This document shows positions 1 to 64,000 of a stretch of 64,000 nucleotides of DNA, piece by piece. Position 1 is the stretch's first letter. Each line of letters starts with the position of its first letter. Below the pieces are notes generated by a model that saw only the letters and a program-made list of their open reading frames with translations, was not told where the DNA came from and did not search any database. The stretch is from a virus. The position numbers and the translations under genes are program-made. The stretch is taken from the IMG/VR virus record IMGVR_UViG_3300045988_142085, positions 1 to 64,000 of that record; one strand, given 5' to 3'.

Positions 1-1597
1 AAAGAGCGTATACAGTATCAAAGTCACCTTCGCCTAGATAGTCCATCTCGTCGAGTGAAATCCAGTCAGCTCTCCAGCCCCGAATAGAGGCTGCACTCAT
101 ACCTGAGTTAGCACCTGTCGTAAAGCCAACAATTTTGGAGCCATTTGAAAATTCGAATAAATATGGATTTGTTGTCGCTCTCGTTACTTCTTTTTTGATA
201 AGAGCAGAACTATCTATTTTCTGACGAATATTATCGAAGATCATTCGTATCTGTGATTGATACGGTGTTACAAACATATGAATAAAGTTTTTACGAGTAA
301 AGACGTTATATAATGCCTCGACTACCATCGTTTCTGTTTTACCGGTATTATGTGAAATAATATCGTTAGCAATAAAGTTACGGTAGTGTGGCACCGATAC
401 ATCATATGTTTGTTGTTCACCAAGATATTCGATCGATACAACCGGATCCCAGAAGATATCACCATTAAGTACATCTTCGATTGATTCGAAGCCTAAATGC
501 TCGGCAAGTTCTTTTGCCTCGGCTTTATTAATCGTTTTAGATTCTAAATATTCTTCGAGTGTTAATCTTCCTGTTTTTAAATATTCAAAATTCGTTTTAC
601 CGACTTCGTGATATTTTAAATAAGATAAAAATAACTTATTAAGTTTATCAGTCATTGGTTGGAACTTATATGAATAATAAACAGAGAACATATTTTTATG
701 GGAATGATTTTTAATTCGATTATATTTTTTCTTGTCGACAAAACCTAAAAAATAAGAATTTCGCTCTTTAACGATTTTTACGACAATACCGAATCGCATT
801 AATAGATGAGCTAACTGATGTGCCAACTGACCTGATTCAGAACAATATAATCGGTTAATCGGAACTTCGTCTTCTTCCTTATATGCATCTTTAATTAATT
901 CAGAAACGAAGATTGACATCGACTCTTTATTTAAAGAAAATACTTCTTTCGGAATTGACTTGTCGGAAGATGTATCTTTGTTTAATTTCTGAGCCATCAA
1001 TTTCAATTCTGACTCTTCGATCGACTCATTTCCGAAATAATTAAGATGCATCGGAATAGCGATATTATCGCCGACCGTAAGATCTTTTAATTCTAACCAT
1101 CCTAATTCGGTTAAGAATGGATGGTTGTCGGTTGCATCGAATGTACGACCTGTATTAGTCGTAATACGATATACCGGTTTAATCCCGTTATCGTATACTT
1201 TAGCATTTTTAGCTATTTCAATTTGATAATTATCGTCGAGAGCAAGAATATTAAATTCTTTATTCTCGTCGAATAATTGTTTTACAGTTTTAAATAATCC
1301 TGTTTCTGGATCTTGTATTTTAAGATTACCAGTTACGCACCGACGGCCACATCGAAATACTTTACGAAGACTTCGATCACGAAGCATTTCGGCCTGGTAC
1401 CAACGTGGAGTCCAAGGGGCATATTTATCTAAATCGATATTATAAATCTGAATAAAAGATTTAGCCCACATAACTGGATCTCGTTTAATTACGACTAGCT
1501 TTCCTTTTTCACTGAGCTTAGTAAAATCTAATCTTACTAAGTCTTCCAAAGGCATTGCCATAAGTTCTTTTACAGAATAATCTTGTTCATTTTTCAT
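1..1597 (-). CDS. terL: terminase large subunit, N-terminal ATPase part; the gene runs off the window start and is interrupted in frame by an intein
   Basis: Minus-strand ORF starting at ATG 1597..1595, absent from the ORF track because it has no in-window stop. Translation reads MKNEQDYSVKEL...RKVFRCGRR[intein]TGKTETMVVEALYN...GWRADWISLDEMDYL. Joining the exteins gives a terminase Walker A (RCGRRTGKTE) and Walker B (WISLDEMD). Confidence 0.8.
   Translation of the reverse strand, partial: MKNEQDYSVKELMAMPLEDLVRLDFTKLSEKGKLVVIKRDPVMWAKSFIQIYNIDLDKYAPWTPRWYQAEMLRDRSLRKVFRCGRRCVTGNLKIQDPETGLFKTVKQLFDENKEFNILALDDNYQIEIAKNAKVYDNGIKPVYRITTNTGRTFDATDNHPFLTELGWLELKDLTVGDNIAIPMHLNYFGNESIEESELKLMAQKLNKDTSSDKSIPKEVFSLNKESMSIFVSELIKDAYKEEDEVPINRLYCSESGQLAHQLAHLLMRFGIVVKIVKERNSYFLGFVDKKKYNRIKNHSHKNMFSVYYSYKFQPMTDKLNKLFLSYLKYHEVGKTNFEYLKTGRLTLEEYLESKTINKAEAKELAEHLGFESIEDVLNGDIFWDPVVSIEYLGEQQTYDVSVPHYRNFIANDIISHNTGKTETMVVEALYNVFTRKNFIHMFVTPYQSQIRMIFDNIRQKIDSSALIKKEVTRATTNPYLFEFSNGSKIVGFTTGANSGMSAASIRGWRADWISLDEMDYLGEGDFDTVYAL
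347..1339 (-). mobile_element. intein (Hint domain plus LAGLIDADG-type homing endonuclease domain) inserted in the terminase P-loop codons
   Basis: Begins CVTGNLKIQDPETGLF (block A). Contains TDNHPFLT (block B, TxxH) and LAHQLAHLLMRFGIV (LAGLIDADG-like). Ends YDVSVPHYRNFIANDIISHN, followed by T (block G: HN plus nucleophile). It is about 331 aa and in frame with no stop. Confidence 0.75.
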
Positions 1598-1602
1598 AAT
1601 TT

Positions 1603-2094
1603 CTATTTGTGGAACGCTTTACCTTCTTGACCCATCATAGTCGTTTGTAAACTATATTGGGACTGTTGAGCTAGGGCCATTCCTGCCTGTCTCATAGTTG
1701 CATATTGTTGTGAATTAACTGGATTAGTCCAAGAGAACGGACGATAATTTTGCTGCATTTGTTGTCGACCTTGTTGAGCTAAATCATTAGCAATGCCGAC
1801 TAAAGCTGGACCGCCATAATAAGCAGCTTGCACTGCCATACCGGCTAATGGACCTAACAATAAATCGGTACCCATACTAAAAGCAGCATCTTGTATTGCG
1901 TTTGCTTTCGTACCACCTTCATCGAGAGTATCGTTATAAGTCCATACTGCATTCGCAGTCGCTAAGCCTGCATTAATTTTATTATCCCAAATTAAATTGC
2001 CGGCTGTACCCATACTCTTAGTCGCATTACCGATATGTCCGACAGCAGATTTTACATTGCCAGTTAAACCTTTGCCTATATTTAATAAACCCAT
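1603..2094 (-). CDS. hypothetical protein, rich in Gly, Ala, Asn and Gln; possibly a virion or internal protein
   Basis: ORF in the track, tightly packed upstream of terL; no recognisable motif. Confidence 0.45.
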   Translation of the reverse strand: MGLLNIGKGLTGNVKSAVGHIGNATKSMGTAGNLIWDNKINAGLATANAVWTYNDTLDEGGTKANAIQDAAFSMGTDLLLGPLAGMAVQAAYYGGPALVGIANDLAQQGRQQMQQNYRPFSWTNPVNSQQYATMRQAGMALAQQSQYSLQTTMMGQEGKAFHK

Positions 2095-2669
2095 TATAAT
2101 GTACCTGGCGCCTTAATATTATTACGTCTTAGTGCAAAATTAATATCGCCAGATGCACCCATATTATCGAGTGCATTTTGTGGCGTTAGTCCAGAACTAG
2201 CCGATACGACAGGATTAACGGTGCCGACCGAAGCAATATTTGCTGTCGATGTCGGCTCCATTGCTGCATCGATCGTATTATTCATAGCACCTAATGCAGC
2301 AGTGCCACCTAATATCGTAGCACCATATCCTGTTAATTTGTATCGATCTGGAATAGAATAATTATCCGGATTAGTACTAACAAATTCTTTATTCACTCTA
2401 AAGTAATCATTAGCACCGTCTTTAATTGCTGGAACCGTATTACGCATAGGACGATATTTAGAGCTATAAGCTTCGACTTCTTCTTTTGAGTATTGACTAC
2501 CCATATCTCCAAGAACTGTTTTTTGTTTCTCGAGATTAGAAACTTGTTTATTAATAAATCTATTTGCTCCATTAGTTATCGTATCGTCAGTTTTTCTAGC
2601 GATATAACCAGCACCTTCGATAACTTTTTCACCGGCAGTTTTTACGCCTTTAACTATACCTTTAAGCAT
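2094..2669 (-). CDS. hypothetical protein
   Basis: ORF in the track, 191 aa, in an overlapping-start/stop operon arrangement. Confidence 0.45.
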   Translation of the reverse strand: MLKGIVKGVKTAGEKVIEGAGYIARKTDDTITNGANRFINKQVSNLEKQKTVLGDMGSQYSKEEVEAYSSKYRPMRNTVPAIKDGANDYFRVNKEFVSTNPDNYSIPDRYKLTGYGATILGGTAALGAMNNTIDAAMEPTSTANIASVGTVNPVVSASSGLTPQNALDNMGASGDINFALRRNNIKAPGTL

Positions 2670-2671
2670 AA

Positions 2672-10168: not shown

Positions 10169-10585
10169 TTATTTAATTCCGTAATATTCTAACAATTGTT
10201 TTACTGAAAAAGATGTTAATTCAATACTGTATTCTTTTAAAACATCTTTTAAAAACTGTTCATCAAATTGATCTTCTTCTTGATATTTACATGCTCTAAA
10301 AAGACAATCATCCAAGTAACTACTAAAACTTCGATGACTATCTAACCATTTTCCAATACGTTTTTGCAAAGCTTTCTTTTTCTTTGCATCAGATTTACTG
10401 TTGTGTTGCTTATAATAAAAAGCAGCAAATGCCTTTTTTACTGTTTTATATCCATAACCTTGAGCATCATCTAATATCTCTCCAGTGCGAGTATCAATCA
10501 TTACATATCTATTATCATATGGTTTTGACAGCTCATCACTTTGAACAGCTTTTAAATATTTGTTTTCTATCTTTTCTTTCATCAT
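10169..10585 (-). CDS. hypothetical protein (start trimmed to MMKEK...)
   Basis: The track ORF 10169..10645 runs upstream into a 9-bp hairpin with a T-tract (10640..10680), which looks like the nrdD terminator. The internal Met is the more likely start. Confidence 0.4.
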   Translation of the reverse strand: MMKEKIENKYLKAVQSDELSKPYDNRYVMIDTRTGEILDDAQGYGYKTVKKAFAAFYYKQHNSKSDAKKKKALQKRIGKWLDSHRSFSSYLDDCLFRACKYQEEDQFDEQFLKDVLKEYSIELTSFSVKQLLEYYGIK

Positions 10586-10866
10586 TGTTAGCATCACTTT
10601 TAACCAGTATAATAAAAAAATGATGACTGTGACAAACAAAGACATAAAAGACCTTATTTGTCACAGCCATCATTCTTAAGATAATTGTCGGCGAGAAGTA
10701 AGATCATCCAATATAATAATTATAAAAGGAACTTCTTTATGCCGACAGTTAAAATAATAATTAGGCGAAGAGTAAATCATTTTCTTCAACTTTTTATAAT
10801 TAAAAGGAACTCTTTTATGCCTAAGCTTATTATACTATCTTTAATAGTTAAATGCAACTATTAATT

Positions 10867-10956
10867 TTAAATATGGAGTACTCTAGATTGAATTTCTTTA
10901 GTCCGACCTTCGTTCCAGAAATTATCTCCTAAATAACCACCTACAATACCGCTAGT
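10867..10956 (-). CDS. nrdD: anaerobic ribonucleotide reductase NrdD, exon 3 (glycyl-radical tail); the 5' boundary is approximate
   Basis: Encodes ...(S)GIVGGYLGDNFWNEGRTKEIQSRVLHI*. GGYLG is the glycyl radical motif (compare RVCGYLG...RVKH in characterised NrdD). It lies 250 nt downstream of the apparent stop of exon 2. Confidence 0.6.
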   Translation of the reverse strand, partial: TSGIVGGYLGDNFWNEGRTKEIQSRVLHI

Positions 10957-11202
10957 TTCCTAGTACTTTAACTCTATTTAAATAGACGGTCTGGACTATA
11001 CCACACAAATAAATTGCCAGCTATGGTAGTCTCTGAGGGTTCATCTAAACGATGCTTCCCTGCGGATTACCCAATCTTTAATCTTTTTACTCTACCAAGG
11101 TAATTATTCTTGCCACTATTTTCTTTCGTTAATAGCTTAGTAATTAAAGCTCTAAGGGACTTCCCGCATATAAGCTGTTTATAGAACGCATGGTTTTGTT
11201 TA
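10957..11202 (-). ncRNA. group I intron (phage IA-like, ORF-less), nrdD intron 2; coordinates approximate
   Basis: Lies between the zinc-ribbon end of NrdD (CPKCGNQDHNTLKVIRRT) and the GYLG exon. Minus strand carries P-like AAUCCGCAGGGAAGC, R CUCAGAGACUACCAUAGC and S GGUAUAGUCCAGACC. Confidence 0.6.
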
Positions 11203-12078
11203 CGTTCTTCGAATAACTTTTAATGTATTATGATCTTGATTTCCACACTTAGGACAAATCCAATCACCATGACCATCAGGCAAAATTTCGCCGTCAAAAC
11301 CACATTTCATACAATGATCGAGCTTAGTATTAAATTCCCAATACATAGCATTATCATAAATATATTGAATAATAGTTTCTAATGCTTCAATGTTATTCGT
11401 CATATTAGGAATTTCACCATATCCAATAAATCCGCCAGTAGCGTTTTCTTGGAAAGGTGCTTCAAAATCTATTTTATCAAAGATATTAATATTTTCTCTC
11501 ACATCAATGTGGTGTGAGTTGGTATAATAACCTTTATCGGTTACATCTTTAATTTCACCGAATTGTTCTTTATCTAATTTAGCAAATCTATAACATAAAC
11601 TTTCTGCCGGAGTACTATATAAAGAATAGCCATAATTCTCTTGAGCATTCCACTCAAGACATTTGTCGGCCATATACTTAGTAATCTTTAATGCTAAATC
11701 TTGATGCTTAGTATTAGATTCACCTGTTAATAATTTAATAGTTTCATATAAGCCAATATATCCTAGGCTTAATGTTGAATAACCGCCAACCATTAAATCA
11801 TCAAGAGTATCTTCTGCATTTTTTCTTGCATAACAACCATACATCCATAGCAATGGAGATATTTTAGCTTTTACTCCAAGTAATCTTTCAGTTTTAAATT
11901 TAAGTGCTTTGTGGCACAACTCTAAACGTTCATCTAGAATTTTCCAGAATTTATCAATATCACCATCTGCTACAATTGCACATTGAGGAAGATTCAATGT
12001 TACAACACCTTTATTAAAGCGTCCATCTATAATAGGTTTATTTTCTTTATCATACCAAACTGATAAGAAACTTCTACA
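11203..12078 (-). CDS. nrdD: NrdD, exon 2
   Basis: Begins CRSFLSVWYDKENKPIIDGRFNKGVVTLNLPQCAI (compare E. coli NrdD MGCRSFL...GR.N.GVV.LNLP). Ends at the C4 zinc ribbon CMKCGF...CPKCGN. Confidence 0.8.
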
Positions 12079-12310
12079 CAACTTAATTAATTAAGCTGGA
12101 CTATCTCTTCATTTATTTTAAATAAATGCGATGCGCATCGAGTAGCACGTCTCTACTCTACTTGGCTACATTCATCACCAATAGTCTCTACACTTTCGTA
12201 ATAATACGATTAGCACGGTATTACCATTAAGGGTTCACCGTTAGCCCCGAATAAGGGACACCTGTTTTGTGATACAGTTCACATCGTTTTATATGGGCCG
12301 TTATGTGTTA
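12079..12310 (-). ncRNA. group I intron (ORF-less, 232 nt), nrdD intron 1
   Basis: Exon 1 ends ...VFGPMG (GGU) and exon 2 starts CRSFL..., which rebuilds the conserved PMGCRSFL. The 5' exon ends in U and the intron ends in G. Minus strand carries R GUAGAGACUAUUGG and S GAGAUAGUCCAGC. Confidence 0.75.
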
Positions 12311-13462
12311 ACCCATCGGGCCAAATACTTGACCATCTTTTACTTTTCGCATAATTTTAGCCGATACATAATCAGGCATCATTCGTTTAGCTGTACATTC
12401 TGCAGCAAGTTTAGTTAAATAATAATATTTACTGCCTGGCTTAGCATTATGTTCATCTAATGCATACACTAACTTAGGGAATGTTGGGCTAATCGTAACA
12501 CCGTCCGGGCCTTTCATGCCTTCAATTCTTTGACGAAGAATCTCTTCTGTAATCATAGCACATTCTTCTTCATACTCTGAACCTGGCATAAAATGCATAA
12601 ATAATGTTATAAAAGGTGACTGCCCATTAACCGTCATGAGTGTGTTTATCTGATACTGTAATGTTTGAATGCCATCTTTTAATTCTTTTTTCAACATTGT
12701 TGCAACGAGTGCATCTTTATTTTGCTCATTATTAAAAATCTCTTCATATTTTTCTTTAGATCTTCTTAAATAAGGAGCTAAAATTTCTTCAATGTTATTC
12801 GCTGTTTGCCCTCCCAGCTGGTTCGATGCAACTCCAGCGAAGAGCTGACTTAATACTGTACACGCAACTTGAAAAGATTTTGGTGATTCAATTTTCTTTT
12901 TGTTTACAACAGTTCCATTTGAAAGCATATCTTTAAAATTTGGCAATCCACAATTATGCATTTTTTGCAACTGGTAGTCCATATCATGCATATGAAGAAT
13001 ACCTTTATCATGAGCATTTACAATATCGATCGGAATTATTTTTCTTCTAGATATATCCTTAGATACTTCACCCGCAATCAAATCACGTTGAGTAGAAATA
13101 ATATATGCATCTTTATTTGAATTCTCATTAAGTGCTTCTTTATTAGTTGCATCAATTAATGTAAGTATGTCATCATCTGATGTATTATTTACTCGTTGAT
13201 ACTCACGTACTGCTCGATATGCTTCATAAGCACGAGCCACATCTTTTTGTTTATGTTTAACGAGGAGATCGAATACCATCTTTTCGATACGTTTAATATC
13301 CAGTTCCTGAAGCATAAGAGCTTCTTGTGTTATTTCTTCGGCAATAGCATTAGCTATTTTTTCATTATCTTTAAGTAAAGAATGTTGTGCCTTACCTATA
13401 GCTACAACGATCTTAGATTTGTCGAAATCGACCTTGCGGCCGTCTCTCTTAATTACGATCAT
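12311..13462 (-). CDS. nrdD: NrdD, exon 1 (ATP-cone and N-terminal barrel)
   Basis: Starts MIVIKRDGRKVDFDKSKIVVAI (ATP-cone); long ORF ending ...DGQVFGPMG. Confidence 0.85.
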
Positions 13463-16709: not shown

Positions 16710-16862
16710 CTTTCTGTAATCAAATAAAACTAAATAGTGCTGCGTATTATAAAAATATCTTATTGCAATATATGTTTTATGCTTTGGGGAAACATTTTAA
16801 TATAATGCAGTAAGACATAATGGTGCTCCCACCTGGGATCAAACCAGGGACCCTCCGGTTAT

Positions 16863-17795
16863 CTTACTACTATAATTTTCATTACCATTAAAATAAATGT
16901 TTGTAGTCTGGACTATATCTTCACCATTTCAGGTGTCCACGTGTAGTCTCTACGGAGTCTCTTTTTACAAGAGTTCCCTCGGTATTAGCATATGTTACCA
17001 CTTAGCCTTCACCGATACAGTGGATTACTTACATAGAGTTTCTAATTCCTCTTTACGTAGCTCAATATCCCTTTTTCTAAAAGGTAAACCATAATATTTA
17101 CACCATTTTCTTACTGCATTATCTGAAACATTATATTTTCTACCTATTTCAAGAAAAGAAGTAGTTAATATTAGTCCAGCCAAAGTTTTTTTGTCTGGAC
17201 GAGAAACTTTTCTTAATTTTAAATTTGGCGTATATTTGCGTTTATTAATAATTCCTTTTTTCTTGTTACATTTTTTACAATATACAGATTTGGAATTGTG
17301 ATTCATTTTTTTGCCACAACATTTACACCTTGGTTTAATAGTTTTTCCATAAAATTTAGCAGATTTTATTTGATTTTCAGAATGAGTAAGTAATTCCAAA
17401 TTTTCTAAAGAATTATTATCTTTATTATGATCTATATGATTAATTTCCATACTAGACGGGATAACACCAACAAAAGTCCTATACACCAAACGATGTACGT
17501 ATAAATGTTTTCCTGATATTTTTACTGCATTATATCCAACATTATTTTTATAAATCTTCATTTTTCTAAAAATCATATTGTTTTTAATGCAAAAAATATT
17601 TTCATCTAACTCTTTTTCTGGCTTGCCATATTTATGAGAACGATGATACATTGTATTATTAATAATAATATAATAATCTGGATTGCATTTTTTTAATACG
17701 CTATCTCCAGATTTATTAATATAATACAATGGAGAAAATTCTATTTGTTTGTAATCATTCATGAAACCTCACATATAAATATATGAGTAAGATTT
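16863..17795 (-). mobile_element. group I intron carrying an HNH homing endonuclease ORF
   Basis: Core lies downstream of the ORF: R CGUAGAGACUACACG and S AAGAUAUAGUCCAGAC, then a P9-like hairpin, ending ...GUAG UAAG directly before the tRNA 3' half. The ORF starts 35 nt after the 5' splice site and has its own SD (GAGG). Confidence 0.65.
17025..17762 (-). CDS. intron-encoded HNH homing endonuclease with a C-terminal HTH
   Basis: HLYVHRLVYRTFVGVIPSSMEINHIDHNKDNNSLENLELLTHSEN (HNH_3/NUMOD-type); zinc ribbon CKCCGKK...CKKC; C-terminal helix-turn-helix. Confidence 0.8.
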   Translation of the reverse strand: MNDYKQIEFSPLYYINKSGDSVLKKCNPDYYIIINNTMYHRSHKYGKPEKELDENIFCIKNNMIFRKMKIYKNNVGYNAVKISGKHLYVHRLVYRTFVGVIPSSMEINHIDHNKDNNSLENLELLTHSENQIKSAKFYGKTIKPRCKCCGKKMNHNSKSVYCKKCNKKKGIINKRKYTPNLKLRKVSRPDKKTLAGLILTTSFLEIGRKYNVSDNAVRKWCKYYGLPFRKRDIELRKEELETLCK

Positions 17796-17883
17796 GAGCC
17801 GGTCGCTCTATCTCTGAGCTATAGGAGCATATAAAAACGGCACATAGAATTTAATATAACTCTATATGCCGTAGATTAAAATA

Positions 17884-28283: not shown

Positions 28284-28312
28284 AAAGTTATTTTATTAAG
28301 AAGTTTGATTTT

Positions 28313-30105: not shown

Positions 30106-30115
30106 ATCACAAGTG

Positions 30116-34772: not shown

Positions 34773-35035
34773 CTTACTATTTCTAGTAAGATCGGACTCT
34801 ATCTTTAATTTTTTATTTAAAAATTATTTCCTGTTCAATGTATACATTGTTTACTTATATCTTATTAAGATACTTTCAATAGTCTCTGAACCTTTATCTT
34901 TGTCACCAAAGATACTTGGCTGCGGATTGTCCAATCTTAATCTTTTTTACTGTATCAAGATAATTACTCTTGCCCCATATTATATCACTATATATGGTTA
35001 GTAGATTAAGCTCTAAGGAGATCCCCGTCAATTTA
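34773..35035 (-). ncRNA. group I intron (ORF-less, about 263 nt) in the helicase gene
   Basis: Minus strand carries R GGUUCAGAGACUAUUG (34892..34877), S AAAGAUAGAGUCCGAUC (34802..34786) and a P9 hairpin CUUACUAGAAAUAGUAAG ending in G. The 5' exon ends ...GCCCUCU (U). Splicing joins ...EQTHAL to FNTRMMNCQSAKYLIEMEP. Confidence 0.6.
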
Positions 35036-36551: not shown

Positions 36552-36806
36552 TTAAGCTTTATACCGTCTTCTTGATGTTTCCGGTATGTATACTTTTTCC
36601 AGGGCTTTTTCAAGCTTTTGTAATTTTTCCATGTTTTGTTTGATGCATTCATGATCTGTATGTACCTTCAACAATCTTTTAATGCCGCCAATATATGACA
36701 TAATGTCAAGAATTTGTTGCCGAGTTGTATAATACTGATTTTTCAACATAGTTTCTTCCTCAGCAATAAATTGACTTATTTCATAGTTGATATCTCTTGT
36801 TAACAT
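36552..36806 (-). CDS. hypothetical protein
   Basis: 84-aa ORF overlapping the Pnkp start. Confidence 0.35.
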   Translation of the reverse strand: MLTRDINYEISQFIAEEETMLKNQYYTTRQQILDIMSYIGGIKRLLKVHTDHECIKQNMEKLQKLEKALEKVYIPETSRRRYKA

Positions 36807-50512: not shown

Positions 50513-52348
50513 TTAGAATACGTCGTTTAACTCGTTTACTTTTTCGACTTTAGGAGTTTCACTGTTATAAGATTTAAATACTTTATATTCGGCCGGGATT
50601 TCTTTAACAAAACGGCTTGGTTGCATACGTTTAGGCACACCACCAATAACACAATAATTAAAGTAACTAATCATTAGCATTTCTTTCGCACGAGTCATCG
50701 CTACATACCATAGGCGACGTTCTTCTTCGATGCCGTGTGGTTCGTCGTAAGAGAACATATGCGGGAATAGACTTTCATTGCCACCGATAATGAAGACAGC
50801 TTCAAACTCTAATCCTTTAGAGGCATGAATAGTCATCATGCTTACTGCATTTTTCTCTTCGTCGATTTCGACGTCCAAGCTAGTGGACATAGTTGCTTCA
50901 AGAACTTCCGGGATTGTTTCGAAAGCATCGGCAACACGAATTAATTCGCGAACGTTAACCATGCGCTCCATAGTATTGCCATATACTGGAGCAACATGAG
51001 ACTCTTGATAATTAAATAATTCTAAGTATTTACGAATGATAAGACCAGGTAATACATTTTCTTCGGCATAAGCTTTAAGTTCATTCCATTTAGATAAAAA
51101 TGTTTTCACGCCGGCATATGCTTTACCTTTAATATCGTTAAGATTAGAATTGGCTTTATTTAACACATTATTAGATTCCCCTACCATTAATTTATTAAAA
51201 GTAGCTTCACCGATACCGGCTTTAGGAATATTAATAATACGTTCTAATGCTTCTTCATCGCATTCATTTAATAATAATCTTAATACACATAACAAGTCTT
51301 TAACTTCTTTACGAGTACAGAATTGCACACCAGAAATTAAATCGTATGGGATAGCATTACGTAAGAAAGCTTTTTCTACTAGATCAAATTGTTTCTTAGT
51401 ACGAGCCAAGATAGCAATATCTTTATAATCAAAACCATTGCGTAATAAAGATTTAATACCGCGAACGATATAGTTAGCTTCATCTTTATCGGATTTAACT
51501 TCTTTAATAAATACAGGAGCACCTTTTTCTTGCTCAGAGAAGGCTTTTTTGTCGATAATCTTAGGATTGTTATCGACAACAGCATTGCTAGCTTCTACGA
51601 TAGTGGACGTAGAGCGATAGTTTTGTTCCAATACATATTGCTCGAAACCATCATCAACAAGAGACTGACATAAAAAATCAATATCAGCACCACGAAATGC
51701 ATAAATACTTTGATTATTATCCATTACTGCGCATAAATTACCATTCTCACGAATGATCCAATTGATATATTCCCAATCTTTACGCCCAGAATCTTGAAAT
51801 TCGTCAGCTATGACATATGTATATTTATTCCAAACATATTCCTGAACTTCGCTATACTTACTAATTAATTCTAAACCATAATTTGCTAAATCGCCGAAAT
51901 CCATCATATTATCGTTACGAAGTTTTTGTTGATATTTTTCGTAAACTAAAAATACTGTGAAGTGATCGTTTTGAATTATTTTATCGTTACGAGCAACGTC
52001 GACTGTAATACCGTGAGTTTTCCAGTCAGGAATTTGAGTTTTTGCGATATCGTATAACTTAGAATTTTTACCGCAAAACTCTTTAATAATTTTTTCTGTA
52101 TCGTCGCTATCTGCAATAGTAAAATTCTTTTCGTAGCCAACAAGATGAGCGAAACGACGAAGTAGCATAGAACTGAAAGCATGATATGTACAAATTGTAA
52201 CGGCCTTAGCTTGCGGGCCAATTTTGGCGATCATACGCTCTTTCATTTCCATTGCAGCTTTACGAGTAAAAGTAAACATAAGGATAGAACCAGGATTAAT
52301 ACCTTGTTCGATCATATATGCTGTACGAGTAACGATAGTGCTAGTTTT
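50513..52348 (-). CDS. uvrD: UvrD/PcrA/Rep-family SF1 DNA helicase, exon 2
   Basis: Starts KTSTIVTRTAYMIEQGINPGSILMFTFTRKAAMEMKERM (motifs I and Ia). Later motifs present: DEFQD-type VIADEFQDSGR, and the C-terminal ...MTIHASKGLEFEAVFI...YVAMTRAKE. Confidence 0.85.
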   Translation of the reverse strand, partial: KTSTIVTRTAYMIEQGINPGSILMFTFTRKAAMEMKERMIAKIGPQAKAVTICTYHAFSSMLLRRFAHLVGYEKNFTIADSDDTEKIIKEFCGKNSKLYDIAKTQIPDWKTHGITVDVARNDKIIQNDHFTVFLVYEKYQQKLRNDNMMDFGDLANYGLELISKYSEVQEYVWNKYTYVIADEFQDSGRKDWEYINWIIRENGNLCAVMDNNQSIYAFRGADIDFLCQSLVDDGFEQYVLEQNYRSTSTIVEASNAVVDNNPKIIDKKAFSEQEKGAPVFIKEVKSDKDEANYIVRGIKSLLRNGFDYKDIAILARTKKQFDLVEKAFLRNAIPYDLISGVQFCTRKEVKDLLCVLRLLLNECDEEALERIINIPKAGIGEATFNKLMVGESNNVLNKANSNLNDIKGKAYAGVKTFLSKWNELKAYAEENVLPGLIIRKYLELFNYQESHVAPVYGNTMERMVNVRELIRVADAFETIPEVLEATMSTSLDVEIDEEKNAVSMMTIHASKGLEFEAVFIIGGNESLFPHMFSYDEPHGIEEERRLWYVAMTRAKEMLMISYFNYCVIGGVPKRMQPSRFVKEIPAEYKVFKSYNSETPKVEKVNELNDVF

Positions 52349-52692
52349 CAGATAGTTATTATCGCTGAGCTTTTTATCTCAGCCTCTGGAGATTTCTCTC
52401 ATTTTCATCGACTAGTCAGTTCTAGTCCAGCTTAGCGTACCTTTTCATCTCTTCCTAAATAGGACAAAAGTCTAAACAAGTGATGGGGCCTCTTGGAGAT
52501 ATTATATTCTTTATTTAAATAAAGGTTCAATCTCTACGCGTTGCGCCTGTTAATAATTTTAACTATTAACTTCGGTCTCTGATTAGCATATGTTTTTACA
52601 CTTAGCCTTCCAGTTTAATTCCCCATTAATAATCTAAGATCTTCGTTTAGAAGTTGATCTTAGACGGCAATAAATTTTTATAAAATTTCTTT
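52349..52692 (-). ncRNA. self-splicing intron (group I-like, second family, ORF-less, 344 nt) splitting the uvrD Walker A codons
   Basis: Exon 1 ends ...NAGAGSG (GGU) and exon 2 starts KTSTIVTRTAY, which restores GAGSGKT. The 5' exon ends in U and the intron ends in G. Long blocks are shared with the AAA-ATPase intron, including a P-like CUGGAAGGCUAAG. Confidence 0.65.
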
Positions 52693-52788
52693 ACCAGATC
52701 CAGCACCTGCATTAACGATAAATTTACCTTCAAATTTCTTCGCGACAGGCAGTTGTTGTTCATTTAAATTTTTTAATAATTCTGACAT
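52693..52788 (-). CDS. uvrD: UvrD helicase, exon 1
   Basis: MSELLKNLNEQQLPVAKKFEGKFIVNAGAGSG with an SD AGGAGG-like sequence upstream; too short to appear in the ORF track. Confidence 0.7.
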
Positions 52789-54009: not shown

Positions 54010-54549
54010 CTATTCAGTTAAATAATTAGATTTGCTAGACTTTTTTACTGGCTCGAGTAAGCTCGCTTTCTTTTCACTTGCATATACTGCAAATTTACGA
54101 GCATGTTCTTCGAGTGCTGCAATAGAATCAGAAGAACTTTTAGCTACAGGAACAATTGTCATTACGGCTTCTTCGATAAGACCTTGAGTAACTTCTTTAC
54201 GGTCATTAACGAATAATACGCGTTGAAGATTAATGATAGTTTGTTCGATCTCAGCACCAGTAAAACGATCGATAGCATTAACGAGATATTCTAAATCTGC
54301 TTTAGATTTGAATTTCAAGCCATATTTTTTAATATAAATAGATAGGATTTCTTGAGCTTCTTCATTATTAGGGATAGAGAAGTACCATTGAGTATCTAGA
54401 CGACCAGCACGCATTAATTCTGGAGGCAACTTGGTGATATCATTACTAGTGAATACAGAAAAGCTGTTTTCATTTTCATGCAGGAATGTCAATAAACGAC
54501 TCATTACACGAGCAAGAGTGCCAGCATCACTTTGATGGCTAGATGCATA
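54010..54549 (-). CDS. AAA+ ATPase, exon 2 (sensor 1, arginine finger, C-terminal helical lid)
   Basis: YASSHQSDAGTLARVMSRLLTFL...LPPELMRAGRLDTQWYF (compare the AAA motifs ...TLNQLLTEMDGF...ALLRPGRFD). Confidence 0.7.
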   Translation of the reverse strand, partial: YASSHQSDAGTLARVMSRLLTFLHENENSFSVFTSNDITKLPPELMRAGRLDTQWYFSIPNNEEAQEILSIYIKKYGLKFKSKADLEYLVNAIDRFTGAEIEQTIINLQRVLFVNDRKEVTQGLIEEAVMTIVPVAKSSSDSIAALEEHARKFAVYASEKKASLLEPVKKSSKSNYLTE

Positions 54550-56061
54550 CAAATGTTATTAACCTGTATATTTTTACATACAGCTCTGGAGGTTTTCCTC
54601 ATTTTCATCGATTAGTTAATTCTAATCCAGTTTAGCGTAACTTTTCACCTTAATTAAGATTCATAGGGTTGGGGCCTCTTGGTAGGATTATATCTTTTCA
54701 CCTACTACGCGTTGCGGCTGGCTTAACTTTGTTAAGCCTTCACCTCTGATTAGCATATTGTATATTAATACAACTTAGCCTTCCAGATTTTTTCCCCAAA
54801 GCTAGTCATCATCTTCTGAATCTGTTGATGACGACACGGCTATGCTATTTACAAATTGTCCTTTTTGATTTCTCATCCAAGGATGTTCTTTTTGATGGCA
54901 TTCTGTACATAATGAAAGACCATTTTTAAGATCATTAAATTCTATACTTTTAACAATGTCATCTAAATTATTATTATATTTTTGTACTATGCTATAAAGT
55001 TGTTCGATATGATGAACTATTATATCGGATCGTGATCCACATTTTTGACATGTATAATTGTCTCTTTTTAAACAAGAATTTTTCCAAATTTCATATTCTG
55101 TAGTGCTTCTTAAATAATGAGCAACTTCTGTATATGTTTCTTTTTCTTTATGTAAATATAATTTTTTATGCTCGTTACAACAAAAATGTTTTTTATGATT
55201 TTTAAATTTAGATTCTATTATTTCATATTTTTTATTACAATAATCACAAGAAACTTCAACACGTTTTTTTCGTGCCTCATGTGAACATTTACTAGAACAA
55301 TAGATATGTTTATTTTTTCCTTCAAAAAAATTTTTTAATGCGCCAATTGGCTTATTTATTTTTTCTCCGCAGAAATCACATTTTAATTCTTCTATTGTTT
55401 TTTTATTTTTTTCTTTTATATCTATTGCGTTATGATGCATACATTCTATTGAACAATATGATATATTTTGATTTCTTTTAGTTTGTTTTTTTACATAACT
55501 ATTTGGTAATTTAAATTTTTTTTGACAAAATTTACATGTAAACTCTGTAAAATTACCACGTATATCATTTTCTTTGTTGTAAATTTTGCAACATTCAGAA
55601 GAGCAGAAATAATGCTTTTTATTTTTTAATTTTTGCTGAACCTTAAATTCTTTTCCGCAACAATCACATTTTACATTTAATTGATTGCGCCCCCAATGTT
55701 TATCTTTACACTCTCGGGAACAAAATTTTATAGGTTGATTTTTTTTATTAGCATTTTTAATTTCTCGTTCACTTCTTTGAAACATATTACCACATTCAAG
55801 ACAAATATAATCATGATATACAATATTTTTATGCGCGTATTCATGCATACATTTCTTTGAACAAAATTGTGGTTCAAAATTTGGATTTTTTCTTTTTTGA
55901 AAATCAACTTCACATTTTCTTCTTTTAAAATCAGACATGCAGTTCTTGCATGCATAGTACAACCATATATTTTCTTTATTTTTCATAATTATCTCCTGTT
56001 AATATTCAGTATACATCTATATATTACAGGAGTTTCTTCAATTTGTAAATTTTAAAATTTA
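54550..56061 (-). mobile_element. self-splicing intron (same family as the uvrD intron) carrying an HNH endonuclease ORF, inserted just after the AAA Walker B region
   Basis: Exon 1 ends ...ILIDEAEKVLGG (GGU) and exon 2 starts YASSHQ. Its 5' end (UAAAUUUUAAAAUUUACAAAUUG) and its 3' 250 nt are homologous to the uvrD intron, with compensatory hairpin changes (GGAUUAG/CUAAUC versus GGACUAG/CUAGUC). Confidence 0.6.
54802..55986 (-). CDS. intron-encoded HNH endonuclease with six N-terminal Cys-rich (FCSxxC-type) zinc-finger repeats
   Basis: C-terminus CQKCGSRSDIIVHHIEQL...LCTECHQKEHP (HNHc). Repeats FCSKKCMHEY, FCSRECKDKHW, FCSSECCKIY, YCSIECMHHN, YCSSKCSHEA, FCCNEHKKLY. Confidence 0.75.
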   Translation of the reverse strand: MKNKENIWLYYACKNCMSDFKRRKCEVDFQKRKNPNFEPQFCSKKCMHEYAHKNIVYHDYICLECGNMFQRSEREIKNANKKNQPIKFCSRECKDKHWGRNQLNVKCDCCGKEFKVQQKLKNKKHYFCSSECCKIYNKENDIRGNFTEFTCKFCQKKFKLPNSYVKKQTKRNQNISYCSIECMHHNAIDIKEKNKKTIEELKCDFCGEKINKPIGALKNFFEGKNKHIYCSSKCSHEARKKRVEVSCDYCNKKYEIIESKFKNHKKHFCCNEHKKLYLHKEKETYTEVAHYLRSTTEYEIWKNSCLKRDNYTCQKCGSRSDIIVHHIEQLYSIVQKYNNNLDDIVKSIEFNDLKNGLSLCTECHQKEHPWMRNQKGQFVNSIAVSSSTDSEDDD

Positions 56062-57123
56062 ACCGCCGAGGACTTTTTCCGCTTCATCGATTAGGATAAC
56101 ACATTGTTTAAGTTCTCTTACTTGATTTAAGGCTCGTTCCATATTGCCTTCAGATGCGCCGACTAGACCTTGCATAATTTTACTTAAGTTAATATTTACT
56201 AATGGTACTTTTAACGTAGCTGCAATAATACTAGCTGCTACAGTTTTAGAACAACCAGGAACACCGAAAGCAATAAAGCCTTTAGGTTTCTTAATGCCGA
56301 GTTGTTTTGCTTCGTCTGTATAGAATTTAGGTAAAGTGGAAACATATTTTTTAAAAGCATGATAGCCACCCATGTCATTCAAAGACATTGTTGGATGAGA
56401 AATTTCTAACATACTTCCGTCGAAGTTTTCAGTTTTAAACTTATGAATATCGGCTACGCTTATATTACCAGATTTTGAACAATATTCTAAACATTGAAGC
56501 ATTTGAATATATGTTAAACCTAATAGTGCTTCGACACATTGTAATTTTTCGTCGCCAGTATGATACTTATTGAGATAAAGCTCGATTTCTTTAGCTGTCA
56601 AAGCATCTAAAGAAATACGATAAGCATAGTCAGCAAGCTCTTCAGGTGGAGCAAATGTTGCGACTACAAATACTGGAGCACCATTGCCTTTAAATGCCAA
56701 TACATCTAATAAAATTTTAGAATACATTGGATTTTTAAGGGCCATAGGTTCTACAAATAGATGAGGCGTATCTTTTTTATCTGGATTACCGACTTCTAAA
56801 AGATACTGATCATATTTATTTAAATCCGGTGTTACTTCACTTTTAATATCTTTAAGATAATTGAAGGAACACTGTTTATTATTTGCTACTAATTTTTTAA
56901 GATCGATAGATCCATAAGGATATCGTTGTGTACTAAGATATACTTTCTTAGTTTCAGAATTACCAAATGCAGCATCGAGAGAAAAATCTTCAAGATTTTG
57001 ACCTGCATCACTTAAAGAATTTAAAACGTAAGACATACCGCGTTCTAATTCTTCTGTTTGAATCCAAATTAATGGATTATATCCGCTTTTAAGACCAGAT
57101 TTAGATAACTTATTAAATTCCAT
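56062..57123 (-). CDS. AAA+ ATPase, exon 1 (N-terminal domain, Walker A, Walker B)
   Basis: Walker A GFIAFGVPGCSKTVAAS; Walker B CVILIDEAEK. Confidence 0.75.
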
Positions 57124-61157: not shown

Positions 61158-61159
61158 AA

Positions 61160-61757
61160 TTAACTTTCTTCTAGTTCTTCGAGCTTAGCTTCAGAATCAC
61201 GAATTTCTTCGACTTCTTTTTCGCTAAGATCTTCAAATGTACCAGAAACCATATTAAGCAACTTTTTAAACTTATCTGGATTAGCAAGCATATCTTCACG
61301 GAACGCCATTTTACCGTTCCATTTATCTAACACTTCTCCAGTGTTAGGATCAATTTGTTGCATCCATGCACCAGCTTTATGAATGATGCCCATATCGACT
61401 AATTCATCGAGCGTACTTAAAATTTGTTCAATGCCTTGACCAAATATAGCAAAGTAGCTAAATTTACGATACGGGAATTCACCTGGAATAGCGTGATTTT
61501 TAGTAATCTTACAGTTAATTTTAATACCGTCTTCTTTACCGATAGGATCACTATCTAAGATACTACCTTTACGCATTTCGACAATCATTATACTGCCGGT
61601 TCTAATTGCTAGACCACCAGCTAATACAAGATTGTCGCCATACATACTAAAACCACCGATATTCGTAGTCAAATGCTGGATGAGAATCATAGCCGTGTGA
61701 TATTTACTAATTAAAGAAACAAATTTTGCTATAATTCTACTATTCATACGCGCTTGG
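61160..61757 (-). CDS. recA: RecA recombinase, exon 3
   Basis: (L)QARMNSRIIAKFVSLISKYHTAMILIQHLTTNIGGFSMYGDNLVLAGGLAIRTGSIMIVEMRKG (compare E. coli [63 protein letters not shown]). Confidence 0.75.
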
Positions 61758-62121
61758 CTTTTTGCCGTGGACTATATCATTATCCTATTATATATAGGAT
61801 ACCTAGTTTTTGGATTTAATGGGATTTCACCAACCCTAGATTAGGGCCCTACTCCTTTTGCCATATTTATATCTTAGCGTCTGGCCAATGGGATAGTCTC
61901 TGAACTTTATTCCTTTAAGAATATTAGCTGCTGATTATCTATTGTTATGTCACTTAGCACTGTCTCTAGCTTTTATTTCAGCATATGACAAACTAATTAT
62001 TTTTTCTGTCTTTCGACAACATTCACATTTATTATTTCTAATTATGTTGTAGTTAATTAGTTATTAAGAACTTCCAGCAATTTACTAGGTTTTCACATTG
62101 TATTACTACAATATGCCTTCC
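61758..62121 (-). ncRNA. group I intron (ORF-less, about 364 nt), recA intron 2
   Basis: Minus strand carries P AAAUUGCUGGAAG, Q AAUCAGCAGC, R GUUCAGAGACUAUCCC, S AAUGAUAUAGUCCACGG. The 5' exon ends ...CACGUGCU (U) and the intron ends in G. Splicing gives SKHVLQARMNS. Confidence 0.65.
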
Positions 62122-62438
62122 AGCACGTGTTTGGAGGCGACGCTTACGTCTTTAAGACTCTTATTAGCTTCGGATTCAGGAACCAAAGCTTTTAGAGTAT
62201 TAATACAGAACAAGTCTATAGCACCAGTTTGAATTAATGCTTCAGCTTGATCGATACAGTCTTCTGCAGTATGATCTCGATCATATTGAATGAAATAAAA
62301 TCGTTCTGGATCGATACCAAATTGATTGACCATATAATCTAAGCTTAAAGATGCTTCACTTTCAATCCATAAGGCAAAATGTCCTTCTGGATTTTCACGA
62401 TGCATTTTACCGATTGTTTCAAGCACTAAACTAGTTTT
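62122..62438 (-). CDS. recA: RecA, exon 2
   Basis: KTSLVLETIGKMHRENPEGHFALWIESEASLSLDYMVNQFGID...AIDLFCINTLKALVPESE (compare E. coli ...LDPIYARKLGVD...VDVIVVDSVAALTPKAE). Confidence 0.75.
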
Positions 62439-62652
62439 CCTTTATACCCTCGGTTTCCCGATATTTATTAGGGGAGTAGACTATATCATCATCTTAATTA
62501 AGATGTTCTGCGCTTCCGTTACGAATGTAACGTACTCCTTTCGGATAGTCGTTGGGGCGCAATTAAGCTGCCTGCTGATTACCTCGATGGGCTTCCCAGC
62601 ATATCACAGAATTTGCATATAATTATCACTAATTATAGGGGCAAAATTAATT
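62439..62652 (-). ncRNA. group I intron (ORF-less, about 214 nt), recA intron 1, inserted in the Walker A codons
   Basis: Exon 1 ends ...IAGVADSG (GGU) and exon 2 starts KTSLVL, which restores GxxxSGKTS. Minus strand carries P AUAUGCUGGGAAGCC, Q AAUCAGCAGG, R CCCAACGACUAUCCG, S GAUGAUAUAGUCUACUCC. The intron ends ...AAAGG. Confidence 0.65.
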
Positions 62653-62922
62653 ACCCGAGTCTGCAACGCCAGCGATAGTCGTAATTTTCCCAATCGGAAA
62701 ACCACCGCCAGTTGCTGCATTAAAGTTAACAGATGGTGTCGGAATAAATCGAATATTAAGCTGTTCCTGAACTTTAGGATCACTTAATCGACCGACAACC
62801 ATGTTGTTCTTTTTCTTAGCCAAGTTAGCCATTACAAGATCTAATCGCTTACGTCTTTCGACGTCAGTTAAGACTTGAGAATTGCTAGCTTCGACAATTG
62901 GTTCAGCTTTCTTTCTTGCCAC
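62653..62922 (-). CDS. recA: RecA, exon 1
   Basis: MARKKAEPIV...RKRLDLVMANLAKKKNNMVVGRLSD...NFNAATGGGFPIGKITTIAGVADSG (compare E. coli ...[31 protein letters not shown]). Confidence 0.75.
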
Positions 62923-63238
62923 TTGTACTTCCTTTCTTGTCCTTAAATGACTTAATGATATTATCTAAAAGATTGATAGCTTGAACGTAATCTTTATTAA
63001 TTTCGCCAGTAGCTTCTTCATAAAGATTATTTCGTTCTACTAAGTATCTTAATGATACACCAAGTACGGGTACAATTGCAAGGTCTTTTTCTGTTCCTTC
63101 AGCATTAAGAAGTTCTTCGATAACTTCAGAAAAAGCTTGAATAATTTGCTTATTCTTTTCTGTAATATCGCCTTCTAATACTTCTGAGAACATACCGACA
63201 TAAGATGCTAAACTCTGTTTAATTGCGTCGAGTTTCAA
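62903..63238 (-). CDS. hypothetical protein
   Basis: 111-aa ORF. Confidence 0.4.
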   Translation of the reverse strand: MKLDAIKQSLASYVGMFSEVLEGDITEKNKQIIQAFSEVIEELLNAEGTEKDLAIVPVLGVSLRYLVERNNLYEEATGEINKDYVQAINLLDNIIKSFKDKKGSTSGKKES

Positions 63239-63990
63239 TATTTTACACCTTTCACGAGTTCGTATTCTTCATACTCAAGTCCGTTAAATAATGGATGTAT
63301 TTTATACATACCATTATACTTTTTCTTGTATAATTCGAAATCTTTATATTTAAGTAAGGTAATTTTGTAATCGACGCCTAAAATATTATTATTTAAATTT
63401 GACATAACTAATGCAAATTTAAGTTTAGTTTTACCTAATGGTTTAGGAACTTTGCCTAGCTTACGCATAGGACCGTCGTCAATTAATTTAACGTTATTAA
63501 ATTCATCGATTAATAATAGGCTATTAATCGACATATCTTCGTTAAATTTATTAACGACTCTATATATTTCTTCTTTCGGCTCGAGCTTAACAAAATTAGC
63601 CTTACCTGATGATTTTTCTGTAATCCGAAGATGTTCGGTTTTAAATCCGATATCGACAATTAGCATACGATTTTGCGTCGTTAAACAGTAAAAGTAATTA
63701 GTATATATCGGGCAAATACTGCAAATAGCATCGCCTTCTTCCAATTTGATTACTTTCTTTGTTCTTGTGATATCGAACATAACGCCAGGAACACATTTAT
63801 AATAGCCGTGTTTTGTTACGATAAGATAGTTAACATCTCTATCGTAATTCAAATAATTATTGTCTTTTGTATAAAAATAATATACACGATCTTCTATCTT
63901 TAAATATGTTTCTGGATTTTGTGCTACACGAAATACTTCGGCACCAGAAAAACGAATAATAGGTTTATTTAGATTTATCATCTGGTTCAC
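63235..63990 (-). CDS. hypothetical protein
   Basis: 251-aa ORF. Confidence 0.45.
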   Translation of the reverse strand: MNQMINLNKPIIRFSGAEVFRVAQNPETYLKIEDRVYYFYTKDNNYLNYDRDVNYLIVTKHGYYKCVPGVMFDITRTKKVIKLEEGDAICSICPIYTNYFYCLTTQNRMLIVDIGFKTEHLRITEKSSGKANFVKLEPKEEIYRVVNKFNEDMSINSLLLIDEFNNVKLIDDGPMRKLGKVPKPLGKTKLKFALVMSNLNNNILGVDYKITLLKYKDFELYKKKYNGMYKIHPLFNGLEYEEYELVKGVKY

Positions 63991-64000
63991 CTATCAATGT

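Follow-up and report, generated by a model that had tools for sequence, protein, structure and literature searches.

In a 64,000-nucleotide (nt) stretch of phage DNA (positions 1 to 64,000 of IMG/VR record IMGVR_UViG_3300045988_142085; the whole stretch is called the window below), recA, nrdD, uvrD, terL, an AAA-ATPase gene, an SNF2-type helicase gene, a tRNA(CAU) gene and a gene of no assigned function are all interrupted, which raises the question of whether the interruptions are mobile self-splicing elements and whether their sites follow a shared logic. Judged from their sequences, all ten elements are real, namely nine group I introns and one intein. The introns amount to 6070 nt, or 9.5% of the window (11% with the intein), and all ten elements lie on the minus strand: two in recA, one each in the AAA-ATPase, uvrD and SNF2 genes, an IStron, one in tRNA(CAU), two in nrdD and the intein in terL. 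The ten elements (nine introns and one intein) listed by a first-pass annotation of the window were thus confirmed and mapped to the base. Very probably, the window is part of a clade in which mobile self-splicing elements, represented here by nine group I introns and a class-1 intein, are exchanged at very high frequency.

The window belongs to a 236,270-bp metagenomic phage contig (k119_70580, ENA ERZ27263288), which is of jumbo-phage size. The genes of the window, among them terminase, tail lysozyme and replication and repair genes, are all on the minus strand, and its G+C content is ∼32%. A megablast search of INPHARED with 50 kb of the window gave essentially no match to a near relative. 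IMG/VR holds dozens of relatives, many of them 200-236 kb long, with 88-98% (mostly 90-98%) identity over the compared regions. By these comparisons, the clade of the window is an undescribed clade of jumbo phages with many near-identical relatives in IMG/VR. The state of each site was scored by locating the 150-nt exon flanks of each element in ∼90 related loci (L120-L152 for the recA sites and L153-L166 for the AAA-ATPase and uvrD sites), and the boundary of each intron was set to the base by reading empty alleles with adjoining flanks. Element coordinates run from the first to the last base of the element on the minus strand.

The elements are optional, and the exact joins match uninterrupted alleles in sister phages. 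Empty alleles, in which the two flanks are directly adjacent, were found in some relatives for all nine introns, and an unbiased scan for insertions and deletions between the window and its relatives returned exactly the nine introns as window insertions, plus four insertions unrelated to introns. Read at the DNA level, the exon joins give the uninterrupted alleles of the relatives, usually at equal length, and the spliced products regain the motifs DSGKT, GSGKT, PMGCRS, RRTCGYLG and AGAEG-x-N as well as a 75-nt tRNA. The first-pass annotation had held that continuous proteins in homologues at the same positions would speak for split genes or frameshifts. Such homologues exist, but as intron-less alleles in near-identical phages, and they do not refute the introns because optional mobile introns predict intron-less alleles. 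Exon joining restores the same protein as in these relatives; the window copies are not frameshifted fragments. Neither motif scans nor comparison with relatives revealed a tenth intron in the window, and a motif match at 16295/16282, considered as a further intron core, was rejected as the start of an ordinary small open reading frame (ORF).

The introns fall into two sequence families, as the first-pass annotation had proposed; these families, and its assignment of HNH ORFs to two elements and tnpB to one, were borne out by alignments and by Pfam/PHROG matches. The seven family 1 introns (recA-1, recA-2, SNF2, IStron, tRNA, nrdD-1 and nrdD-2) had been described as sharing a near-identical core. 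This description fits the R motif, found in all seven with at most two mismatches, and the S motif, found in all seven with at most one mismatch, but not the P and Q motifs or the introns as a whole. The P motif AAUUGCUGGAAG has a good match only in recA-2 (exact) and in the IStron (one mismatch), the Q motif lies within one mismatch in five of the seven, with P4 covarying in the other two, and overall intron identity is low (mean column identity 35%). S-like decamers occur 12 times in the window compared with 3.7 expected, a number that none of 100 shuffles reached; R patterns alone showed no enrichment compared with chance. With the Rfam model Intron_gpI (RF00028; family threshold 50 bits), the IStron (75.5 bits), SNF2 (66.2), recA-1 (64.8) and tRNA (54.9) introns score at or above threshold, followed by recA-2 (44.7), nrdD-2 (30.6) and nrdD-1 (28.6). 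A scan of the whole window returned only two introns at the gathering threshold and three at E<=10, which understates the intron count because the speed filters lost the IStron ribozyme that scores 75.5 bits when searched alone. Rfam is thus blind to most of the introns in a whole-window scan, and standard annotation of such phages will therefore tend to fragment the recA, nrdD, uvrD, helicase and tRNA genes.

Consistent with a group I assignment, P3, P4, P7, the terminal G and the guide sequence are intact in all nine introns, the terminal G in each case standing at the sole join that reproduces the intron-less allele. A P1 guide pairing can be read in all nine, and seven have U at position -1; the two with C, not U, at the 5' splice site are recA-2, where C stands opposite A, and the tRNA intron, where it forms a C-G pair.

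Family 2 comprises the introns of the AAA-ATPase and uvrD genes:

AAA-ATPase exon 1, 56062..57123, minus strand: covers Pfam AAA positions 4-70 and ends ...VILIDEAEKVLGG
AAA-ATPase intron, 56061..54550, minus strand: 1512-nt family 2 group I intron with junction ILIDEAEKVLGG/YASSHQ and boundaries U...G
AAA-ATPase exon 2, 54010..54549, minus strand: covers Pfam AAA positions 74-129 and begins YASSHQSDAGT...
uvrD exon 1, 52693..52788, minus strand: reads M...NAGAGSG (intron-less alleles, AGSGKTSTIV)
uvrD intron, 52692..52349, minus strand: 344-nt family 2 group I intron without an ORF, at GSG/KT between the Walker A G and K codons
uvrD exon 2, 50513..52348, minus strand: reads KTSTIV... and matches Pfam UvrD-helicase from position 40 and UvrD_C

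The two window copies were aligned with MAFFT together with five relatives (7 sequences). RNAalifold found P3, P4, P5 and several hairpins independently, and a hand-drawn structure to which P7 was added as a pseudoknot comprises 42 pairs, with 294/294 cells standard compared with 31-42% when the partners were slid. Sixteen pairs show compensatory changes, and P3 and P7 stand in pseudoknot order; pairs were counted in helices that MAFFT aligned consistently, with P2, P5a, P6 and P8 left out. By this fold, with its P3/P7 pseudoknot, the uvrD and AAA-ATPase introns are assigned to group I. A group II reading was rejected, the GUGYG start and AY end being absent and the fold being that of group I. 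The P7 strands are GCGUA/UACGC in family 2 and GACUA/UAGUC in family 1, two differences that are both compensated. The tRNA intron links the families, its P4-P5 being of the family 2 type and its P7 of the family 1 type, and between P7 and P3', where subgroup IA2 has its P7.1/P7.2 helices, a hairpin covaries in family 2 (helix 4) and hairpins are visible in recA-1.

At the AAA-ATPase site, an HNH ORF (55986..54802; PHROG HNH, 1e-20) sits within the P1 loop and shares sequence at its 3' end with the guide GCCGU and P2. Among L153-L166, this site is empty in 5 loci and holds an ORF-less 299-307-nt intron in 8 and an HNH ORF form in 1; a 362-nt form occurs in further IMG/VR loci, e.g. L071. The uvrD intron pairs its 5' splice site in P1 UGGU/GCCG with boundaries U...G, and its site is empty in 9 loci, with a 341-344-nt intron in 4 and a 1307-nt LAGLIDADG form in 1.

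The recA sites likewise vary in state among the relatives, and splicing is predicted to join three exons:

recA exon 1, 62653..62922, minus strand: covers Pfam RecA positions 2-64; its last residues, ...AGVADSG, form the first half of Walker A, and the junction was set by comparison with the intron-less L120
recA intron 1, 62652..62439, minus strand: 214-nt ORF-less group I intron at DSG/KT, between the Walker A G and K codons
recA exon 2, 62134..62438, minus strand: reads KTSLVLE...DVSVAS and covers Pfam RecA positions 78-160
recA intron 2, 62133..61758, minus strand: 376-nt ORF-less group I intron at VAS/QAR; Rfam E=3e-10 on a short stretch
recA exon 3, 61160..61757, minus strand: covers Pfam RecA positions 164-261

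Spliced RecA is collinear with the protein of the intron-less L120 and 98% identical to it. In recA-1, the 5' exon ends in U and the intron in G, with P1 GGGU/GCCC and P10 AAAA/UUUU, and the site is empty in 18 relatives, occupied by the ORF-less intron in 9 and by a LAGLIDADG form in 1 (L139, 1259 nt). In recA-2, which also ends in G, the sole join that gives the intron-less protein (TC/C) sets C at the 5' splice site, where it faces A in P1 (GCCUC/AAGGC) next to a 3-bp P10 (CCA/UGG); a U/G choice of boundaries was rejected because it adds two residues that are not in the intron-less allele. A 375-377-nt intron stands at this site in 7 relatives, about 21 are empty, and no endonuclease form was seen among them.

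The SNF2-type helicase and nrdD genes are split in a like manner:

SNF2-type helicase exon 1, 35065..36321, minus strand: matches Pfam SNF2-rel_dom and Helicase_C positions 2-78 and ends ...LIASNAGAEG in motif V
SNF2 intron, 35064..34759, minus strand: 306-nt ORF-less group I intron at AGAEG/MN
SNF2-type helicase exon 2, 34540..34758, minus strand: contains motif VI (QTQRHGRIER) in translation
nrdD exon 1, 12311..13462, minus strand: ATP-cone and N-terminal half, Pfam NRDD positions 1-250, ending ...FGPMG
nrdD intron 1, 12310..12079, minus strand: 232-nt ORF-less group I intron at PMG/CRS; Rfam E=5.7e-5 on a short stretch
nrdD exon 2, 11202..12078, minus strand: Pfam NRDD positions 264-539 and Gly_radical
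nrdD intron 2, 11201..10941, minus strand: 261-nt ORF-less group I intron at RRT/CGYLG; Rfam E=1.5e-5
nrdD exon 3, 10867..10940, minus strand: 74 nt, reading ..GYLGDNFWNEGRTKEIQSRVLHI*

The SNF2 intron has P1 GAGGGU/GCCCUC with a U-G wobble and P10 AUGA/UCAU, and its join AGAEG/MNCQSAKYL gives a product of the same length as the intron-less alleles. The P1 taken from Rfam was wrong, and another U...G choice of boundaries was rejected because it shifts the reading frame; the correct 3' site lies 14 nt further. The site is empty in 9 relatives, with the 306-nt intron in 3 and a ∼1300-nt LAGLIDADG form in 2. In nrdD-1 (P1 AUGGGU/GCCCAU, boundaries U...G), the site is empty in L177, L178 and L181, the ∼232-nt intron is found in L174 and L184, and L179 carries a 732-nt HNH form. 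The second nrdD intron splits the Cys codon (T/GT) of the glycyl-radical motif RRTCGYLG, with P1 AGAACGU/GCGUUCU and boundaries U...G; relatives are empty (4) or hold a ∼261-nt intron (8), a 657-nt form (5) with an HNH-like ORF (read in L168) or a ∼983-nt form (2) with a 240-aa LAGLIDADG-like ORF (read in L169). The ORF at 10169..10645 (minus strand) was rejected as nrdD exon 3, which is 10940..10867; it is a variable extra gene. This 158-aa ORF downstream of nrdD is flanked by short direct repeats, falls in a ∼450-nt gap in 17 relatives and gave no informative domain match.

In the tRNA gene, the intron separates anticodon bases 34 and 35:

tRNA(CAU) 5' half, 17796..17828, minus strand: ends at C34, as called by ARAGORN on the spliced sequence
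tRNA intron, 17795..16863, minus strand: 933-nt group I intron between bases 34 and 35, with the Rfam core at 17097-16890 and a terminal G
tRNA(CAU) 3' half, 16821..16862, minus strand: CCA included

ARAGORN called the 75-nt spliced product tRNA-Met(cat), in line with the first-pass assignment to tRNA-Met, whose amino acid identity is less certain, since a CAU anticodon could also belong to tRNA-Ile2. An HNH_3 ORF (17762..17025; Pfam HNH_3, 1e-16) lies in the P1 loop, and within its 3' end is the guide GAGCU, which pairs with exon GGCUC, is aligned by Rfam to the guide G of the model and places a C-G pair at the cleavage site in place of the U-G wobble. C34/A35 is the sole join that combines the terminal G with the anticodon loop CUCAUAA of the empty allele (...GGCTCATAACCGG... 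in L184); a join shifted by 2 nt was wrongly called tRNA-Phe. Eleven relatives are empty at this site, and none has the intron with or without an endonuclease ORF. Homologous introns at 34/35 stand in tRNAs of other phage contigs, with U as the -1 base in tRNA-Ile(UAU) and C in tRNA(CAU). Just upstream of the split gene are an intact second CAU tRNA and a tRNA-Ser(UGA) (18172-18249 and 17884-17971, minus strand); of the two CAU tRNAs, one may read AUA as a tRNA-Ile2.

The remaining intron is part of a larger element, the IStron:

IStron host gene, exons 30814..30132 and 28239..27798, minus strand: 374-aa gene to which no function is assigned
IStron, 30131..28240, minus strand: 1892 nt, with the group I ribozyme at ∼30131-29740, then tnpB at 29575..28313 (420 aa), then ∼75 nt

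Its tnpB has Pfam OrfB_IS605 and Cas12f1-like_TNB domains and is the sole IS200/IS605 gene, tnpA being absent from the element. With its group I ribozyme joined to IS200/IS605 sequence, we classify the element as a group A IStron. The insertion follows AGTTAT, the 3' splice site coincides with the right end of the element (...GAGGTTCAG/), and the join ...GTTAT/TAATCC... yields the ...DIVINPQPKD... of the relatives. The window site is empty in 15/15 relatives, but relatives carry copies elsewhere, at about eight sites. Six of these immediately follow TTAT (NTTAT; one site, in L169, L173, L177 and L178, lies outside the base-level reading of TTAT), and wherever the right end of a copy was recovered, it is the same GAGGTTCAG. 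This difference of sites between relatives suggests that the IStron is mobile. In a bacterial genome collection, the closest TnpB (83% identity) was found at the beginning of the 208-kb contig L203 (USNF01000001.1) of an 'uncultured Gemella sp.' metagenome-assembled genome; this contig may itself come from a related phage and not from a host, and the match was not used as host evidence.

The tenth element is the intein:

terL coding region, 1..1597, minus strand: N-extein 1597..1340 and C-extein 346..1, running off the window edge
terL intein, 1339..347, minus strand: 331 aa, at GRR/C...HN/TGKT within Walker A

It has Cys1, a C-terminal His-Asn (C...SHN/T), Thr+1 and a central LAGLIDADG-like region, and it matches Pfam Intein_splicing (93.5 bits) and, weakly, LAGLIDADG_3 (E=0.003); from these features it is identified as a class-1 intein. 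Joining the exteins gives a sequence that matches Pfam Terminase_6N and the PHROG terminase large subunit (1e-14) across GRRTGKT. The intein is present in 18/18 informative relatives at the same 993-nt spacing.

Sites empty in the window are occupied elsewhere in the clade. Among relatives L153-L202, insertions of 0.7-3.5 kb stand at ∼10 such sites (window equivalents ∼60300, 54400, 52400, 51800, 51000, 36500, 27800, 12600, 5200 and 1600), most of them with group I R/S core motifs; those equivalent to 27800, 5200 and 1600 have the IStron right end, and the latter two are also IStron-sized. The pool of intron sites of the clade in this region is therefore about twice that of the window, with at least 18-20 distinct group I insertion sites in the 64-kb region across ∼45 relatives.

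Together, these observations suggest how the elements would act and spread. The introns would be removed exactly, by guanosine-initiated transesterification, such that the reading frame or the tRNA anticodon loop is regained, and the intein would be removed after translation. A homing endonuclease would cut empty alleles during co-infection, with recombinational repair to follow; we infer homing because these introns have LAGLIDADG and HNH variants at identical sites in relatives and because the exon flanks adjoining the introns are synonymously recoded, as expected of co-conversion. Six of the nine window introns carry no endonuclease gene and would therefore depend on the enzymes of co-infecting phages or be immobile. 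The IStron follows a rule apart, inserting after TTAT, ending in TCAG and occupying different sites in different relatives.

Is there, then, a shared logic of insertion? Every insertion point named in the first-pass annotation was reproduced: GSG/KT in uvrD, DSG/KT in recA, GRR/TGKT in terL and, in the AAA-ATPase gene, a point just after Walker B, seven codons past DE. Four of the ten elements thus lie at or near nucleoside triphosphate-binding motifs. Of the six others, the IStron follows its TTAT target, and five interrupt further functional sites: in nrdD the Cys loop and the glycyl-radical motif, in the SNF2 gene helicase motif V, in recA the segment after loop L1, and in the tRNA the anticodon. 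The proposal of recurrent homing into ATPase-motif DNA captures a real link between the Walker A sites of uvrD and recA but is too narrow. In its strongest form, a single endonuclease or intron lineage recognising the DNA of the G-K-T P-loop would have jumped between uvrD, recA, terL and the AAA-ATPase gene. Consistent with this, the uvrD and recA-1 introns interrupt the same codon junction in near-identical exon contexts (TCNGGT/AAAACTAG: TCTGGT/AAAACTAGC and TCGGGT/AAAACTAGT), and the LAGLIDADG enzymes that relatives carry at these two sites are closer to each other (38% identity, E=2e-31) than to the SNF2-site enzyme (27%). However, the uvrD and recA-1 introns come from separate sequence families, terL is interrupted by an intein and at another position of the P-loop, the AAA-ATPase intron has an HNH and not a LAGLIDADG enzyme, and five of the six remaining elements lie in non-ATPase functional motifs, the IStron following TTAT. 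Moreover, insertion at conserved active sites is a general rule for introns (PMC12908238), and a bias toward P-loops is likewise published for inteins (PMC5050341, PMC4760082). We therefore regard P-loop-specific targeting as unlikely, though not implausible, and the Walker A insertions are one case of the conserved-functional-site rule, not a special logic.

Several points weigh against the view that all ten elements splice and move. The Infernal/Rfam check suggested in the first-pass annotation succeeded for four introns at threshold; recA-2, nrdD-1 and nrdD-2 fall below it, with small E-values on short stretches, and the uvrD and AAA-ATPase introns gave no Intron_gpI match even when short stretches were searched with relaxed thresholds. 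The covariation that carries the family 2 fold comes from seven sequences at two groups of sites and reflects few events. Splicing of the ten elements is predicted from joins at the DNA level, co-conversion is deduced from the recoded flanks, and C(-1) in the recA-2 and tRNA introns could lower or abolish the first splicing step.

These points bear on the possibility that some elements are decaying relics that no longer splice, leaving the interrupted genes or tRNA non-functional in this phage. The absence of an endonuclease ORF from six of the nine introns, the two introns with C at -1 and the copy of the tRNA intron in L205, which lacks P3'-P8-P7', would fit such decay, and with an intact second CAU tRNA 300 nt away, the split tRNA could be dispensable. 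Against it, every core element is intact in all nine introns, the exon reading frames are open and conserved, recA, nrdD and uvrD are conserved in all relatives, and the ORF-less form is the commonest state at several sites in relatives. Decay of this kind is thus improbable, more so than P-loop-specific targeting, and functional introns remain the favored reading. In L205 itself (IMGVR_UViG_3300008279_000012, ∼1930-2050), the P3'-P7' segment that the near-identical L206 retains was apparently lost by deletion between two GACTACA repeats, and this copy is probably an inactivated intron within a tRNA gene. Finally, that the interruptions are gene fragments, frameshifts or assembly chimeras can be dismissed: beyond the raw appearance of split ORFs nothing further was found for it, whereas identical insertions with identical boundaries recur in independent assemblies (e.g. 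both recA introns in L143 and L145), which rules out an assembly artefact, the empty sites are clean in genomes 88-98% identical, and each insertion either is matched by the group I covariance model or has a group I fold supported by covariation.

Other features of the window were noted in passing. Two proteins (41816..44209 and 44225..45511, minus strand) combine YadA head, stalk and membrane-anchor domains in the manner of trimeric autotransporter adhesins. They probably serve as fibres or adhesins, and a host that has an outer membrane may be hinted at by their presence. A 777-aa protein (36781..39114, minus strand) unites three activities in one chain (an AAA_33 kinase-like domain, a metallophosphatase and an RNA ligase of the T4 Rnl1 type), the architecture of an RNA (tRNA) repair enzyme, in a genome with its own intron-split tRNA gene. 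Directly 3' of a perfect TTGACA-17-TATAAT promoter (24753-24725) is a stretch of ∼800 nt without an ORF (24753..∼23850, minus strand) that ends near a hairpin. It is conserved at 88-94% in 14/14 relatives (mean column identity 94%), has no Rfam match even when searched as a short stretch and was folded by RNAalifold with 245 pairs, 16 of them compensatory, and 14/2446 cells broken; this makes it a candidate large structured non-coding RNA of jumbo phage. Two ∼130-nt direct repeats (23790-23660 and 23600-23480, minus strand) that end in strong terminator-like hairpins (23739-23710 and 23557-23528) may be small RNA genes.

Near-identical genomes hold empty, ORF-less and endonuclease-bearing states at the nine window sites and at ∼10 more in relatives, and homing, co-conversion tract length, endonuclease gain and loss, and decay are therefore measurable from existing metagenomes. 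The two C(-1) sites offer a natural test of how strict the U-G wobble is, and the IStron poses the questions of whether RNA-guided TnpB maintains the element in phage genomes and how it moves without tnpA. If the elements are functional, phages would gain three novel features: naturally occurring group I introns that splice with C(-1) (C-A in recA-2 and C-G in the tRNA), an intron with its own endonuclease gene that passes between phage genes for tRNA-Ile(UAU) and tRNA(CAU), and a group A IStron that moves between sites in lytic-type jumbo phage genomes.

Phage group I introns, IStrons, P-loop inteins and intron-rich large phages are all kinds already known. The introns of T4 (td, nrdB and nrdD; three in all), SPO1 and Twort are phage group I introns of subgroup IA2. 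Like them, the window introns are short ribozymes in genes of DNA metabolism (nrdD, recA-like and helicase genes) with conserved R/S motifs, endonuclease ORFs in peripheral loops, insertions in catalytic motifs and intron-less alleles in close relatives; unlike them, there are nine in 64 kb, two have C at the 5' splice site, and two have an ORF in the P1 loop that overlaps the guide sequence. Over 85% of its length, the uvrD intron shares ∼70% identity with a sequence within the gyrA coding sequence of Bacillus phage AR9, a coding sequence whose annotation joins three pieces. This element of AR9/PBS1 gyrA, with a similar one in Yersinia phage phiR1-37, is likewise found in jumbo phages, but the host genes here are uvrD and the AAA-ATPase gene, and RF00028 is blind to the window copies. 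The cyanobacterial tRNA-Leu(UAA) gene has a group I intron at 34/35. Bacterial tRNA introns, such as those of Patescibacteria, share with the window intron this position and the exact restoration of the anticodon loop, whereas the intron described here is phage-encoded, has C34 and not U at -1 and carries an HNH ORF, which is reported to be uncommon in bacterial tRNA introns (PMC13011429).

The IStron resembles the group A IStrons CdISt1 (C. difficile), FnISt1 (Fusobacterium) and LbISt1 (Leptotrichia) in its 5' group I ribozyme, tnpB without tnpA, length (∼1.8-1.9 kb), site after a T-rich pentanucleotide ending in TTAT, 3' end TCAG and multiple sites (PMC4227781). It differs from them in residing in a ∼236-kb phage genome and its relatives, not a bacterial chromosome, and from the known phage IStrons (C. 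botulinum phage c-st), which are of group B, the IS607 type. The terL intein shares with the mycobacteriophage P-loop inteins TerL1-a/b (PMC5050341) its class, the Walker A site in TerL, Thr at +1 and an endonuclease-like insert, but it sits at GRR/TGKT, four residues upstream of the 'classic' K/T site, in a T4-type terminase (Terminase_6N), and it is fixed in the 18/18 relatives examined.

[quoted passage not shown] These phages, too, have large genomes in which core genes (terL, nrdD and polymerases) are split by introns and inteins. The clade of the window is different from both and undescribed, without a near match in INPHARED. It is a tentative suggestion, to which we give somewhat less than an even chance, that this is the most intron-dense phage lineage so far and that its C(-1) splicing, tRNA intron movement and mobile group A IStron would, if functional, be new. 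The density of one element per 6.4 kb here, compared with a maximum of about one per 11 kb in Zeta phages and an average of about one per 20 kb in Jug phages, sets a window against whole genomes and is not strictly comparable; read in this way, the window stands at the upper end of the reported range.

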